Sequence record: PQ341120.1
Origin: Escherichia phage EAWsc9
Reading direction: 5' to 3' (one strand)
Length of the DNA: 64,000 bases
Part shown: one piece after another, positions 15,318 through 37,534 of the stretch
Numbering within the stretch: position 1 is the first letter of the stretch
Layout of the letters: each line of letters opens with the position of its first letter
Position numbers and translations under genes: made by a program
The notes under the pieces: model-generated
Databases searched by the model: none
What the model saw: only the letters and a program-made list of their open reading frames with translations
Told to the model about the DNA's origin: nothing

Positions 15318-15318
<1 letters not shown>
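15121..15318 (-). CDS. hypothetical protein, 65 aa
   Basis: track ORF. Confidence 0.45.
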
Positions 15319-17094
<1,776 letters not shown>

Positions 17095-17104
17095 TATATT
17101 TTCC

Positions 17105-17344
17105 TCACGCTTTCTTGGCAACTTTCCAGTCAGCTTTAAATTGGTCAACGTCAGAGTGATGAATCCAGAAACCAGATGAGCTACCATCTTCATAAAGAGG
17201 ACAACCATCGCACTCATCTTTCCAACCCATCGCGCATAAAGTTTCTTCAGCTTTTTCCAGAGCTTCTGGATTGTTACCCTGGATTGTAAAGTACCATTTG
17301 CCTTTAACTTCTGAATCTTTGATGCTTTCACGTTGTAATTTCAT
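17105..17344 (-). CDS. hypothetical protein, 79 aa
   Basis: track ORF; early promoter upstream. Confidence 0.55.
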   Translation of the reverse strand: MKLQRESIKDSEVKGKWYFTIQGNNPEALEKAEETLCAMGWKDECDGCPLYEDGSSSGFWIHHSDVDQFKADWKVAKKA

Positions 17345-17379
17345 TTTATTCTCCAGTTTTATTTGGTAGCTCAGTATGG

Positions 17380-17415
17380 GACCATTATGTCATAGCCCCA
17401 TTTGGTTGTACACTA
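17380..17415 (-). promoter_or_regulatory. T4-type early promoter
   Basis: minus-sense GTGTACAACC ... ACATAATGG. Confidence 0.5.
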
Positions 17416-17419
17416 CTTT

Positions 17420-17686
17420 TTAAATTTTATCAAGCCATTTGCCAAGTTTAATCATTTCCTTAGTGGCTTTTTCCATACTTCTGAACTTAACTAATAAAGG
17501 ATATGTATCTACACCCATAACAAGATTGGTTGCAAGGCTGTGCTCACCCACAAGCCATAATGAGTAGGTTTGAACATCCAGACCATAATTTCTGTCTTTA
17601 TGCAAACGCACACCCATCACTTCAAATTGTTCACTGGCTTTTTCCACTGCATCCAGGAAATCATCTTTAGTCATATTAGACCCCAA
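17420..17686 (-). CDS. hypothetical protein, 88 aa
   Basis: track ORF. Confidence 0.5.
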   Translation of the reverse strand: MGSNMTKDDFLDAVEKASEQFEVMGVRLHKDRNYGLDVQTYSLWLVGEHSLATNLVMGVDTYPLLVKFRSMEKATKEMIKLGKWLDKI

Positions 17687-18107
17687 AAGTTGCTTTAATC
17701 AGTGCAATGACTTCTGCCGCATTTTTATGATTTACCTGCACATGAATGGTTTGGGTATCAACAGGTGCATCGCCATCAACTTCTGCCGCATTTTTATGAT
17801 TTACCTGCACATGAATGGTTTGGGTATCAACAGGTGCATCGCCATCAACTTCCAGGAAGTGACAGAATTCCCATCCAGCGAGTTCAAAGTACTCATCAGC
17901 ACCACCCATACTATTCAGGATGGTGCCATCTTTCATTTCAACTTTTTCAACAAAATAATCACCTTCAATATAACACATATCCAGGACTTTGAAGGAATTG
18001 CCATGTTGTTCCATCAACCTGACCATGCACGAATTGTCATCAGGACTATCAGCGATGAATTGTTTTTTGGCAGCGGGGTCTAATACGTAAAATTTACCAG
18101 TTTCCAT
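17676..18107 (-). CDS. hypothetical protein, 143 aa, carrying a perfect 23-codon tandem duplication
   Basis: track ORF; paralogous to 18457..18819 (shared D(D/E)YFEL and C-terminal motif). Confidence 0.6.
   Translation of the reverse strand: METGKFYVLDPAAKKQFIADSPDDNSCMVRLMEQHGNSFKVLDMCYIEGDYFVEKVEMKDGTILNSMGGADEYFELAGWEFCHFLEVDGDAPVDTQTIHVQVNHKNAAEVDGDAPVDTQTIHVQVNHKNAAEVIALIKATFGV
17712..17849. repeat. perfect 69-bp direct tandem duplication (2 copies), in frame
   Basis: 17712-17780 is identical to 17781-17849. Confidence 0.9.
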
Positions 18108-18166
18108 TTTAATTTCCTCATATTCAATTGAGGGAACATATTATCATGTCCCCGTTTGTTTGTATA

Positions 18167-18394
18167 CTAAGCTTCAATCAAATTCATATAAAATTTAGTG
18201 TCTTCAGGGTACATACCATCACAATATTCATTTTGCATAAAGCGGGTAATGTCTTCAAGAGGACCTTGGACTTCAATTTGAATACCAAAGACTTCAGTAT
18301 CTTTAATGTAAGTCATACACAAAGAAGGATAACGATTGCGGATAACTTCGTAAGTGTATTCAAAATCAACGATATCAATATTAACCTTAGCCAT
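18167..18394 (-). CDS. hypothetical protein, 75 aa
   Basis: track ORF. Confidence 0.5.
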
Positions 18395-18456: not shown

Positions 18457-18819
18457 CTATTTGAAAGCTTTTTGTAGAAGTTCAATGATTTGGTCGACGT
18501 TATTAGCATCCACAACACAATTAATAGAAACCGCTCCTGAAGGTGTTTTTGCATAACTAGAGTATTCACGGAAGCAATAAAACTCTTCTTCACTAAGTTC
18601 AAAATAATCATCACCCATGCCATCATCATTATAGATTGCACCATTAGCACAAATGATTTCGGTTACATAATCATAGCCATCTGCGCTTGATATTGATTTA
18701 ACTTCAAACCAACCACCATTTTCTTGGATGATGTCGACCATATTAGCATTTGATGAACTAATATCAATGAAAGATTTAATACGATGCGGGTTGAACTCAT
18801 ATTTTTTGCCGATTTCCAT
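18457..18819 (-). CDS. hypothetical protein, 120 aa, paralogue of 17676..18107
   Basis: track ORF; early promoter upstream. Confidence 0.55.
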   Translation of the reverse strand: MEIGKKYEFNPHRIKSFIDISSSNANMVDIIQENGGWFEVKSISSADGYDYVTEIICANGAIYNDDGMGDDYFELSEEEFYCFREYSSYAKTPSGAVSINCVVDANNVDQIIELLQKAFK

Positions 18820-18854
18820 TTTTATTTCCTCAGTTGTTATCAGTAGTTGATGGA

Positions 18855-18890
18855 ATCATTATGCCTTAGCTCAAAGGGCTTGTACACTAC
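18855..18890 (-). promoter_or_regulatory. T4-type early promoter
   Basis: minus-sense GTGTACAAG ... GCATAATGA. Confidence 0.5.
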
Positions 18891-18904
18891 TTTTTGAAAA
18901 TAAA

Positions 18905-18930: not shown

Positions 18931-19842
18931 TTAAAGGCCAGCCAGGAGGTCGTCAAGACCATCATCGGAAGGCTCTGGAGTGCTTGGAGCAGTCGCAGTG
19001 CGTTCAGACTTAGCAGGTTTGCTGGAAGTGAAGTCTTCCATATCTTTATCGAAATCGTCCAGGTCAGCGCCCAGTTTATCGGCTTGTGCAGCAGCTTTAG
19101 AAGCAGCGCCGCCGAGAGCGGCCGTACCCATTACTTTAGAGAATTTCTTCTGATTCTCTTCAAGGGATTTAAACACCAGCAATTCATTCAGGTCAGACAT
19201 TTCGTCCCAAAGTTTTTTCTGGAATGCTTCATCATTGATACCAGCGATTTCGGACTGGTTCATGAATTTGGAATCATCGTAGTTTTTATAACCGGAAACC
19301 AGTTTAGATTTCAGTACAAAGTTTGCACCTTCAAAAGGACAAGTTACATCAATAGCTGTTTCGCCCATGTCAACATCGACTTCAACCATCTGGTTAATTT
19401 TGTCCATGATTTTCTTGCCGAAGCGATATTTGAATACTTGACCTTCGTTAGACGGAACAGCAGGGTCTTTAATGACCAGGATGTTAGCCCAGTAAGAAGT
19501 ATTACGCTTCAGTTTACGATATTCGGATTCGTTTGTATTGTACAGGTCATTCTTATTCATGTACGCACACACAGGACAGTTTTCATAGTCGCCGTGAGTA
19601 GAAGTACAGTTTTCAATATACCATTGACCGCCATTTTTAAAGCCGTGGTTAACGAGCTTGATGAACGGAGATGGATTTTCTTCATTTTTGGAAGGCAGGA
19701 AACGAATAACCGCAGAGCCGACGCCATCAGTATCTTTCAGTTTCCATTCTTTTTTATCGTCAGAAGAGAAACCGGAACCACCTTTCAGGGCGTTAAGGGA
19801 AGCAGCCAGGTCAGCAGGGTTTTTACGTTTAAACATAGACAT
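18931..19842 (-). CDS. 32: single-stranded DNA-binding protein gp32
   Basis: 303 aa; FKRK...[34 protein letters not shown] match T4 gp32. Confidence 0.95.
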
Positions 19843-19902: not shown

Positions 19903-20571
19903 TCAAAGTGCTTGAAGCGTTATTTGACAGTTTTTAACGGTCTCGATGAACAATTTACGAGCTTCAAGAGAATCTATATTTAAGATTTTCTTATAGGCAT
20001 TTAGTTTGGTTGAATACTTTTCCCAAACCAAGTCGTTAGTCTGCTCATCATGTTTATTTATAATATCTAAAAATGAATCAAGCAAACAAAACGTTTCAAA
20101 TGAGATAACATTCGATTGGAGAAGTTTGAAAATATAACTTGTGTTTACTTTAGTATTATACTCGAAAATCTCTTGAAGCGATTTGACTTCGACTTTCTTA
20201 CTGAAGTAATAGATATTCTTTATATCATCTTCGTATACTTGTTTAATTCTTTTAAGTCTGCCAATGTATTCTCGATAAAATATCAGAGCATCGGCATCGC
20301 TTATATCACCTATCCATGCATCCTGGTTCGCGACCAGGTTTGACATGAATATTAACGTTAATTCTTTGAGAGTGTACTTATCACTAAGCTTTTCGAAAAA
20401 ATACTTATCGCGACGTTTTTGATAAGCACTGTCGGAGATTCGCATGGTCCAGTTATATTTGATAATATCATAACGACCCGAAAAATGCTGTTTGATGGAT
20501 AAGTATAGTTGATATACTGATTTACCATTTATATATCGGTTGTTATTTGGAGGCATGCGAATCGTAATCAT
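19903..20571 (-). CDS. 59: gp59 helicase loader
   Basis: 222 aa; RYI.GKSVY.LYL.IKQH, ANQDAWIGDISDADAL.FYREYIGRLK match T4 gp59. Confidence 0.93.
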   Translation of the reverse strand: MITIRMPPNNNRYINGKSVYQLYLSIKQHFSGRYDIIKYNWTMRISDSAYQKRRDKYFFEKLSDKYTLKELTLIFMSNLVANQDAWIGDISDADALIFYREYIGRLKRIKQVYEDDIKNIYYFSKKVEVKSLQEIFEYNTKVNTSYIFKLLQSNVISFETFCLLDSFLDIINKHDEQTNDLVWEKYSTKLNAYKKILNIDSLEARKLFIETVKNCQITLQAL

Positions 20572-27979: not shown

Positions 27980-30900
27980 ATGGCTACTTTAAAACAAATA
28001 CAATTTAAAAGAAGTAAGGTTGCCGGCGTTCGTCCGGCGCCAACAGTTCTTGCTGAAGGTGAACTGGCTATCAACCTGAAAGACCGCTTACTTTTTACTA
28101 AAGATGACACCGGCGCCATTATCGACCTTGGTTTTGCCAAAGGCGGTAATATTGATGGTAATGTTATTCATAACGGTAATTACAATCAAACTGGTGATTA
28201 TACTCTGAATGGTACTTTTACTCAAACTGGTGATTTTAATTTAACCGGCATTGCTCGTGTAACTCGCGATATTATTGCCGCGGGTCAGATAATGACTGAA
28301 GGTGGTGAACTTATTTCTAAGAGTGCATCGACTTCGCATCTTCGTTTTTTTGATGGTGCATCACGCGAACGCGGTATTATCTTTTCTCCTAACAATGCGG
28401 GTTTGACAACTCAGGTAGTTAATATACGAGTGCAAGATTATGCCGCTGGTAGCGAAAGCACTTACGCGTTTTCGGGCAATGGTCAATTTACTTCACCTGA
28501 AGTATCAGCATGGAAATCTATTTCATCCCCACAAATTCTGACTGATAAAGTTATTACAAATGGTAAGAAAGCTGGTGATTACGATATCTATTCATTAGCA
28601 AATAATAATTCTAACACAGATAAAAATAATTTACGTGTTGTACGTACCGACGCAGCCGCCGCAATGCTCCATGAAATTTGTGAAAATAACGGTATCAGTT
28701 GGTATTCCGGTTCAACCCCTACTGATTATATGTTATCTTTTGCTTATTCAGGTGGTTTTCAAGCTGGACATTCGATTGCAGTGGGTATGGAATCAGGGCC
28801 TATGACATATTCAGCCTTAGGTAAAGGTTCTATTGCTCTTGGTGATAATGACACCGGGTTAAAATGGTACCAAGATGGTTATTTCTATGCAGTAAACAAT
28901 GGTACGAGAACTTTCCTTTACAGCCCTGAATCAACTGTAAGCCTTAGAAAAATGGTCATGGGTTATTCTGTAAACGGTAACGATTTAACTACGCCGCCGA
29001 CAGAAAACTATGCGCTTGGTACCGTTGTTACTTATCATGATAATAATGCCTTCGGTGATGGGCAAACTCTTTTAGGATATTATCAAGGTGGAGCATATCA
29101 CCACTATTTTCGTGGTAAAGGCACTACAAACATTAACACCACGGGTGGTTTGTTGGTGACTCCGGGTAATATCGATGTGATTGGCGGTTTAATTAATATC
29201 GACGGCCGCAGTAATGCTTCAACCTTACTGTTTAGTAGCTATACGTCTGGTCAAAGCTCTGTCGATAATATGAATATACGCGTTTGGGGCGATACTTTTA
29301 CCACTGTAGACGGTACTCGCAAAAACGTAATGGAAATATCTGATGCTACTAGCTGGATGCAATATATTCAACGAACAACTGCTGGTAAAGTCGAATCGGT
29401 TCTAAATGGCTCCCAGATTGTTAATGAAAACCTGACCGTAGTAAAAAATGCCACATTTGATGGTACAATCAGCGCACATGGTGAAATTGCAGGTAATGCT
29501 GTTAATGCCCTTAGAATTTGGAACGACGATTACGGTGCTATTTTCCGTCGCTCAGAAAACAGCCTTCATATTATTCCAACTGCCTATGGTGAAGGCAAAA
29601 ATGGCGATATCGGTCTACTTCGTCCGTTTAGTTTGTCTTTAGACACAGGTAAGGTTGTTATTCCTGACCTAGATTTGAGCTATGCTGGATTCCCTGCAAA
29701 CGGGTATATCAGATTTGGCGGTCATGGCGCTGGTGCCGGTGGATACGATATACAGTATTCACAAGCAGCCCCTGTTTTCCAAGAAATTGATGATGACGAG
29801 GTAAGTAAATATTATCCTATTGTTAAGCAGAAATTCTTACAAGGGGAAGCTGTTTGGTCTTTAGGTACTGAAATTAATTCCGGTACTTTTGTTTTACATC
29901 ATTTAAAAGAAGATGGAACACAAAATCATACCTCAAGATTTAATGCTGATGGTACAGTTAATTTCCCGGATAACGTTCAAGTCGGTGGTGGTGAAGCTAC
30001 TATTGCTAAAAATGGTAACATTTTCTCTGATATCTGGAAAACATTTACTTCAGCAGGCGATGTAACTAATATTCGCGATGCCATTGCTACTCGTGTTGCC
30101 AAAGAAGGCGATACAATGACTGGTAAATTGGTCATTGAGGCTCCTGGTGATGCTTTAGTATTAAGAACTAGCGCAGGTAATAGTTCACATATCCGTTCTG
30201 ATGTAAATGGTACCGGCAACTGGTATGTTGGTAAAGGTGGCAGCGATAATGGAATAGGCCTTTACAGCTATGCTACTAACTGTGGCCTGTATATCACCAA
30301 TAACGGTGAATTCAACGTAGACCTTTCTGGTGCTGGTCTGGCAATGCAGATGAATTATTATCGCATGTATGTTAACGGTCGAGCATGGGTTAATACTCAA
30401 GGTCATGGTTACGGAAACCAATGGCAAACAGAAGCTCCTTATTTCGTTGACTTTGGTGAATCCGTTCCTAAAGATAGTTATATGCCAATTATCAAAGGAA
30501 AAAGCACTCTAGCTACTGAAGGATATTCTACTAAAGCAGACTTCGGTATTATTAGATTGGGTGGAGCTGGTACTTGGGGTTCTGCTGTTATTCGTGTGGG
30601 TTCTGCTGAAAGCGGCGATGCAAGCCATCCTAATGCAATATTTGTATTTCAGGCTAATGGTGATTTTGTTGCACCTGCCGGTTTACGAGCCAGCGTTAAC
30701 CTAGGTGTGGGTACAATCCCGGTATGGGGTGGTGCGTCCATTGCTATTGGTGATAATGATACCGGTTTAGTTCATGGCGGCAACAGTCGAATTAATATGT
30801 ATGCTAACGCGCAGCATATTGCGTCATGGGGTACGATGTATCAATCTCATCCCGGCCTTTGGGACTCAAATGGAGCTTTTTGGACAGAAGTCGGCAAAGC

Positions 30901-31309
30901 AATTATTTCTCATGGCCATTTAGTTCAGGCGAATGACAGTTATTCCACATATGTCCGTGATGTTTATGTCCGTTCTGATATTCGCGTTAAAAAAGACCTC
31001 GTTAAATTTGAAAATGCTTCTCAGAAGCTTTCTAAAATTAACGGTTACACTTATATGCAGAAGCGTGGAACGGATGAAGAAGGTAATCAGAAATGGGAAC
31101 CTAACGCTGGTTTAATTGCTCAAGAAGTTCAAGCTATTTTACCTGAATTGGTTGAAGGTGACCCTAATGGTGAAGCTTTACTTCGTTTAAACTATAACGG
31201 TGTAATTGGTTTAAATACAGCTGCAATCAATGAGCACACTGCAGAAATAGCAGAATTGAAATCAGAGATTGAAGAACTTAAAGCATTAATTAAATCATTG
31301 TTAAAATAA
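27980..31309 (+). CDS. 37: long tail fibre distal subunit gp37 with C-terminal intramolecular-chaperone-like domain
   Basis: 1109 aa; N-terminus [32 protein letters not shown] matches T4 gp37; C-terminal ~120 aa ([14 protein letters not shown]...[16 protein letters not shown]...NYNGVIGL...coiled coil) resembles the self-cleaving chaperone domain of other phage fibres. Confidence 0.9.
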
Positions 31310-37393: not shown

Positions 37394-37534
37394 TTACCAA
37401 ATTAACGAATGTACTGCCATTATAACATCAGAAATAAAAAGCACAACCTGCACTAATGCAAATACAACTCCATAATACAGCGCTACCAATAAGGCAGCAA
37501 GGGCTAACGAGTAGCCCAAGATTTTCTTAATCAT
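37394..37534 (-). CDS. small membrane protein A, 46 aa (MIKKILGYSLALAALLVALYYG...)
   Basis: overlaps upstream ORF B (ATGATTAA); hydrophobic. Confidence 0.45.
   Translation of the reverse strand: MIKKILGYSLALAALLVALYYGVVFALVQVVLFISDVIMAVHSLIW

Follow-up and report, generated by a model that had tools for sequence, protein, structure and literature searches.

A 69-bp in-frame tandem duplication in the frd.2b gene of T4-type coliphages, most probably born of slippage in a shared ancestor

The 64,000-nucleotide stretch of Escherichia phage EAWsc9 analyzed here (sequence record PQ341120.1; hereafter the window) carries, within a small early gene, two adjacent copies of a 69-bp unit of 23 codons. 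Very probably, this structure is a genuine, inherited in-frame tandem duplication in frd.2b of a Gaprivervirus-like T4-type coliphage, which arose by slippage in an ancestor shared with a second isolate, Escherichia phage pEC-M719-6WT.2. The closest records to the window are Gaprivervirus-like coliphages such as SP18, VR20 and UPEC07.

Direct comparison within the window showed that positions 17712-17780 and 17781-17849 are identical 69-mers, and TRF reported the interval 17710-17852 with a period of 69, 2.1 copies, 100% matches, 0 indels and a score of 286. Both results bear out an earlier note on this DNA, made from the letters alone, which had described a perfect in-frame duplication in the open reading frame 17676..18107; the frame of 143 aa is open. 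The exact period-69 identity covers 143 bp (17710-17852), that is, 2 x 69 + 5 bp, and the copies are arranged head to tail without spacer or filler, 17710-17778 being followed directly by 17779-17847 with 100% identity. The shifted identity of 74 bp is the longest exact direct repeat of the 64-kb window, the runner-up measuring 55 bp, and the probability that a 69-bp tandem identity originated by chance (~64000 x 4^-69) is effectively zero. Further long exact direct repeats in the window were found at 37492/37747 (47 bp), 37676/37941 (55 bp), 38512/49729 (44 bp) and 1543/35813 (31 bp). In the 143-aa protein, the peptide DGDAPVDTQTIHVQVNHKNAAEV occurs twice, at residues 88-110 and 111-133, whereas the unit as first delimited (17712-17780) gives the codon numbering 87-109. 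The final Val of the second peptide repeat is encoded by GTC, not GTT; the DNA register is therefore ambiguous inside the 5-bp microhomology, while the peptide repeat is exact. The components of the repeat are the following:

17710..17852, no strand assigned: full perfect period-69 tandem identity (TRF and direct comparison)
17712..17780, minus strand: promoter-distal copy, second peptide repeat, about residues 110-132 (sequence)
17781..17849, minus strand: promoter-proximal copy, first peptide repeat, about residues 87-109 (sequence)
17710..17714, no strand assigned: ACTTC at the left boundary, AACTTCC in single-copy relatives (sequence and alignment)
17779..17783, no strand assigned: ACTTC at the new copy-copy junction, CCATCA-ACTTC-TGCC (sequence)
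17848..17852, no strand assigned: ACTTC at the right boundary, AACTTCC in single-copy relatives (sequence and alignment)

The repeat is embedded in a T4-type phage gene neighbourhood on the minus strand, which comprises the following features:

15318-16178, minus strand: thymidylate synthase
16175-16756, minus strand: dihydrofolate reductase
17105-17344, minus strand: DUF5417/frd.1 protein
17420..17674, minus strand: gene of 84 aa, phrog_4423, downstream of frd.2b (open reading frame and profile search)
17676..18107, minus strand: frd.2b-type gene with the duplication, 143 aa, Pfam FRD2 and phrog_622 (open reading frame and profile search)
18114..18119, minus strand: Shine-Dalgarno sequence GAGGAA, 6 nt upstream of the frd.2b ATG (sequence, conserved block)
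18130..18178, minus strand: promoter-like intergenic cassette copy upstream of frd.2b (repeat family)
18167..18394, minus strand: frd.3, Pfam Phage_FRD3, between both FRD2 paralogues (Pfam)
18457..18819, minus strand: frd.2a, FRD2 paralogue of 120 aa without duplication (Pfam and alignment)
18931-19842, minus strand: gene 32
19903-20571, minus strand: gene 59

The ATG of the phrog_4423 gene lies 1 nt past the TAA stop of frd.2b, and this tight stop/start junction is intact because the duplication is in frame. The conserved Shine-Dalgarno block CCATTTTAnTTTCCTCA was found four times, at 17091, 18104, 18391 and 18816. A plus-strand open reading frame at 17727..18083, antisense to frd.2b, was considered as an opposite-strand function and treated as mechanical.

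The 143-aa protein matches Pfam FRD2 (PF03197) with 114.6 bits against a cutoff of 29 (E = 3.5e-33), in two stretches because of the repeat, as well as phrog_622 (5.6e-33); its relatives measure 118-124 aa. Identity to T4 Frd.2 is 31% for this protein and 77% for the product of 18457..18819. Judged by these identities, the latter gene is the orthologue of T4 Frd.2 and the duplicated gene is a diverged second paralogue, the one that the SP18 record calls frd.2b. This frd.2b-type paralogue is absent from T4, where only one FRD2 gene exists. The gene order here is 32, frd.2a, frd.3, frd.2b, and in T4 (locus L008:1344-2003) it is 32, frd.3, frd.2. The position equivalent to that of T4 frd.2, downstream of frd.3, is held by 17676..18107, so that, owing to the differing gene order, T4 frd.2 has its sequence orthologue in one window gene and its positional counterpart in another. 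In the record of Yersinia phage vB_YenM_P8 (PP693301.1), the FRD2 gene (L002:1379-1741) is labelled 'endonuclease VII' and the FRD3 gene (L002:1802-2029) 'ssDNA binding protein'; these labels are likely annotation errors, the homologous window genes giving FRD2 and Phage_FRD3 in Pfam.

The gene at 18457..18819 is indeed a paralogue, as the earlier note had proposed: it too belongs to Pfam FRD2, and the two proteins are 32% identical to each other. Both paralogues are also found in relatives such as SP18 and, given this presence together with an identity of only 32%, their split is ancient. The further step from the existence of a paralogue family to a recombinationally active region does not follow. 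An intergenic cassette of ~49 nt is present in three copies in this region (17376-17424, 18130-18178 and 18850-18898, minus-strand sense; 67-78% identity), but the 69-bp duplication does not involve these repeats. The cassettes are located upstream of small early genes and contain a GTGTACA...CATAAT promoter-like pair with partial dyad symmetry. They resemble the PeSL cassettes of T4-type hyperplastic regions (PMC2839356, PMC4122927), and cassettes of the PeSL kind have been reported as mediators of gene shuffling in T4-type phages (PMC2839356). PeSL-mediated recombination was considered as the cause of the duplication and rejected, the boundaries being intragenic and away from the cassettes.

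Comparison with related phage genomes revealed the two-copy allele in one other record and a single copy in the remaining matching records. In the second carrier, pEC-M719-6WT.2 (OQ845958.1), which comes from sewage in China, the position and boundaries of the duplication agree with those in the window. The two sequences are colinear, with ~97.9% identity across the aligned 52 kb, and in the region of the repeat pEC-M719-6WT.2 provides the best local match in the phage collection (98.1%), as against 96.3% or less for any single-copy record. The copies in pEC-M719-6WT.2 differ from those of the window by one nucleotide each, with G for the window C at 17718 in the left copy and G for the window A at 17796 in the right copy; both differences are synonymous and leave the 23-aa peptide repeat unchanged. 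Elsewhere, the stretch 28800-31200 is only ~78% identical to pEC-M719-6WT.2 or unaligned, the rest being 95-98% identical and colinear; it corresponds to tail-fibre genes in the pEC-M719-6WT.2 record and probably reflects exchange of a host-range module.

Apart from these two phages, the allele was not found in the collections searched. Among the matching records listed from a collection of 50,697 phage records there was no other carrier, all others having a single copy; the region is present in ~300 related phage records and the repeat unit itself was matched in ~60. A 100-bp junction query gave a one-piece, full-length match in OQ845958.1 only, among the matches listed, and aligned to the other listed records in two overlapping pieces of 75-83 bp, as expected for one copy. 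Similarly, a 40-aa junction peptide was matched in full in OQ845958.1 only. In the 90%-identity protein cluster of 13 members, 12 have 120-121 aa and the pEC-M719-6WT.2 protein is the sole long one, and all 32 homologue clusters of the protein collection fall at 118-124 aa. The exact 143-aa sequence was not found in a collection of 15 billion proteins, and phmmer against 1.84 billion representatives found no internal duplication in another FRD2 protein. Two kinds of candidate from the latter search were rejected, namely a match of 255 aa (P0061), which is a low-complexity repetitive protein matching only through the query's own repetition, and matches of 2,000-5,400 aa, which are HCBP_related/RTX repeat proteins rather than duplicated FRD2. 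The sole IMG/VR match to the junction pattern was a chance one, to an unrelated contig that resembles neither the unit nor the window, and a longer junction pattern retrieved nothing from contigs of metagenomes or genomes. Alleles with three or more copies were not detected in phage records, proteins, IMG/VR, metagenome or genome contigs, and the only length changes in the linker among relatives are single-codon indels. Thus, the allele is rare, young and lineage-restricted, and the site is not hypervariable.

In all three single-copy relatives fetched (YenM_P8, UPEC07 and SP18), the unit is bounded on either side by AACTTCC, the two occurrences lying 69 bp from each other. Accordingly, the microhomology that the earlier note had suggested looking for at the junctions does exist, with 5 bp in the window and 7 bp in the single-copy relatives. 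Microhomology-mediated tandem duplications occur in T4. By such a route, a nascent end would mispair during replication or recombination between the short direct repeats 69 bp apart (AACTTCC in single-copy relatives, ACTTC in the carrier lineage), and the expected product would be a head-to-tail duplication with microhomology at every boundary and without filler DNA. At the junction CCATCA-ACTTC-TGCC, the upstream flank of the right-hand repeat passes through the microhomology into the downstream flank of the left-hand one, a pattern from which we infer that slipped-strand mispairing or illegitimate recombination took place between short direct repeats. The microhomology permits this route but does not prove it, as chance should provide direct repeats of 5-7 bp with comparable spacing a few times in any gene. 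Slippage driven by a hairpin or quasi-palindrome was rejected, since single-stranded DNA of the single-copy unit folds no more stably than shuffled sequences (z = 0.10 and 0.47 for either strand).

Around the gene, the nearest single-copy relatives are ~3-7% divergent, and the window is identical to pEC-M719-6WT.2 over 17031-18121 (1,091 bp) save for sites 17718 and 17796. This comparison places the event, as far as the sequences tell, in the common ancestor of the window phage and pEC-M719-6WT.2, after its split from the other sequenced relatives. The event thus need not have occurred in the window isolate, the allele being older than the separation of the two carriers. A very recent event, as suggested by the perfect copies, therefore holds in one respect only: the duplication postdates the split from the single-copy relatives but predates that between the window phage and pEC-M719-6WT.2. 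Near-identical kilobase blocks of this kind number eight between the two genomes, and 5% of 1,091-bp windows show two differences or fewer. Both differences of the block fall within the 138-bp repeat, one per copy, an arrangement with a post hoc probability of (138 x 137)/(1091 x 1090) = 0.016, which simple neutral inheritance does not predict. Possible causes of the two-site pattern are an elevated rate of change within the repeat, conversion of a short patch and consensus errors in OQ845958.1. UPEC07 and SP18, both single-copy, also have G at 17718, so that a co-infecting relative may have donated a short conversion patch at this site. Gene conversion homogenizing the window copies was considered and is not favoured: because the window unit (C, A) recombines the copy types of pEC-M719-6WT.2, (G, A) and (C, G), a conversion scenario requires the same number of steps as a pair of point mutations in pEC-M719-6WT.2.

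The duplicated unit consists of the linker DGDAPVD, the strand TQTIHVQVN and the first helix residues HKNAAEV. T4 Frd.2 has been predicted to comprise an LSm/SH3-like N-terminal barrel (residues 1-88), a flexible linker and a C-terminal domain (Kim et al., PMC12152347), and the GoF-MotB.1-Frd.2 family is characterized by a bent beta-barrel of five strands at the N terminus, with FeoA, SH3-like and LSm proteins as the closest folds of known structure (Kim et al. 2025, PMC12152347). A sequence search of solved structures with the protein yielded no meaningful match (best E = 0.11). On this architecture, the added copy would sit between the SH3/FeoA-like N-terminal barrel and the C-terminal helix. 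The duplication preserves the reading frame, the stop codon and the tight downstream junction. Linker length varies naturally in the family at the insertion position: T4 Frd.2 exceeds its window orthologue by 7 aa at the linker, and the linker is also longer in distant homologues of 131 and 138 aa. The two-copy allele is probably tolerated and the gene probably still functional. In T4, an frd.2 amber mutant plates normally (Kim et al., PMC12152347), and frd.2 was the sole 'Fit' T4 gene among those of unknown function in a CRISPRi-ART screen (PMC11879866); given the 31% identity and the single FRD2 gene of T4, these data apply to the duplicated gene by homology only. As a separate observation, residues ~22-72 matched, in the phmmer search of 1.84 billion representatives, repeated modules of RTX/HCBP_related (PF06594) adhesin-like proteins of 2,000-5,400 aa (e.g., P0045, E = 2.9e-13, in 4 stretches), and Pfam FRD2 scored 28.3 on one giant RTX/HCBP_related protein, slightly below the cutoff of 29. 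The FRD2 barrel and the HCBP_related module may be remotely related, or the similarity may stem from composition.

AlphaFold2 models of the 120-aa single-copy protein (pLDDT 90.6) and of the 143-aa protein (pLDDT 86.6) share a confident, unchanged N-terminal domain. In the single-copy model, the conserved strand is unpaired and followed by a helix (107-118), whereas in the 143-aa model the strand copies (96-105 and 116-125) form a hairpin, of moderate confidence (pLDDT 66-72), followed by a helix at 130-141. The models suggest that the conserved strand normally pairs with another chain and that the duplication would satisfy it internally. A selected gain of function could be built on this contrast, whereby intersubunit strand pairing would give way to pairing within the chain, with effects on oligomerization or on the binding of partners, and the allele would be less prone to recombinational loss once its copies had diverged synonymously. 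We regard this as unlikely. The strand and helix do constitute the most conserved stretch of the family; the strand lacks a partner in the monomer model and is paired in the longer one; GoF and MotB.1, which Kim et al. placed in the same proposed superfamily, run both as monomers and as dimers (PMC12152347); and the two differences between the carriers are both synonymous and inside the repeat. However, the hairpin reaches a pLDDT of just 66-72, two substitutions are too few for a test of selection (the chance that both are synonymous is ~0.05), differences elsewhere in the two genomes are also mostly synonymous, and the allele is rare. In its most specific form, which we consider rather improbable, the duplication would turn an intermolecular TQTIHVQVN pairing at a dimer interface into an intramolecular hairpin, creating a 'self-satisfied' FRD2 variant that is kept by selection and stabilized by synonymous copy divergence. 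If this conversion were true, oligomeric state or partner binding would be altered, the allele would be a natural, ready-made probe of the role of the FRD2 C-terminal motif, and the synonymous divergence in pEC-M719-6WT.2 would be a first step stabilizing the array against recombinational loss.

Very unlikely, in our assessment, is a recurrent hotspot, at which the microhomology would make the duplication arise and revert repeatedly, so that the two carriers would be independent and the event in the window very recent. In its favour, independent events at the same microhomology would share their boundaries, the copies have diverged in pEC-M719-6WT.2 but are perfect in the window, and relatives show single-codon indels in the same linker. 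Indeed, with only two carriers, shared descent and two independent events at the same microhomology are formally inseparable. Yet the AACTTCC direct repeats are present in all three single-copy relatives examined, and the carriers among the ~300 related records with the region (~60 matching the unit) are only the two closest relatives. Moreover, no three-copy allele and no junction match emerged from the metagenome, viral and genome collections, and the otherwise identical 1.09-kb block of the carriers fits a single event in a shared ancestor. The hypervariable site raised as a possibility in the earlier note thus found no support, there being neither a further carrier nor an allele with more than two copies in the collections searched. 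An assembly or sequencing artefact, in which an assembler expanded a single-copy genome, would account for the perfect identity of the window copies but is effectively excluded, as the duplication recurs, with unchanged boundaries and with copies differing at two sites, in a GenBank genome deposited independently for another isolate, a 138-bp array is shorter than a typical short read and would not usually be expanded by assemblers, and random error would be expected to keep the frame in only 1/3 of cases.

Inherited duplication in a shared ancestor, the reading preferred here, means that the repeat is a real allele of two phages, which annotators should not 'correct' as an error. It indicates that an FRD2 paralogue can accommodate 23 additional residues in its linker and C-terminal motif, and provides a natural variant for the study of the FRD2 family, the T4 member of which is conserved across T4-like phages. 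It is also a clean natural case of microhomology-mediated in-frame duplication as a route by which small phage proteins can lengthen. At the same time, mutations of this kind are ordinary, the gene is an accessory early one, and the practical value of the finding is small.

The nearest known counterpart of the duplicated gene is the pEC-M719-6WT.2 coding sequence WMU95648.1, the same gene with the same 69-bp tandem duplication, which differs in being called from an upstream ATG (156 aa) that the window does not have; the duplication is neither annotated nor described in OQ845958.1. The single-copy frd.2b-type genes of SP18 (ADO19592.1), UPEC07 (QUL77493.1) and MN01 (QIN95629.1) share the locus, the gene order and Pfam FRD2, and their proteins are ~83-93% identical to the window protein outside the repeat, but they measure 120-122 aa and contain the unit once. 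T4 Frd.2 (NP_049852.1) is alike in its Pfam family and in its predicted architecture of small beta-barrel N-terminal domain, linker and C-terminal strand and helix, with the difference that the duplicated gene is only 31% identical to it. As for the event itself, it resembles microhomology-mediated duplications of T4 and other phages in the head-to-tail arrangement, the lack of filler and the short direct repeat at both ends of the single-copy unit; compared with these, its only notable trait is an in-frame product that has lasted in two natural isolates.
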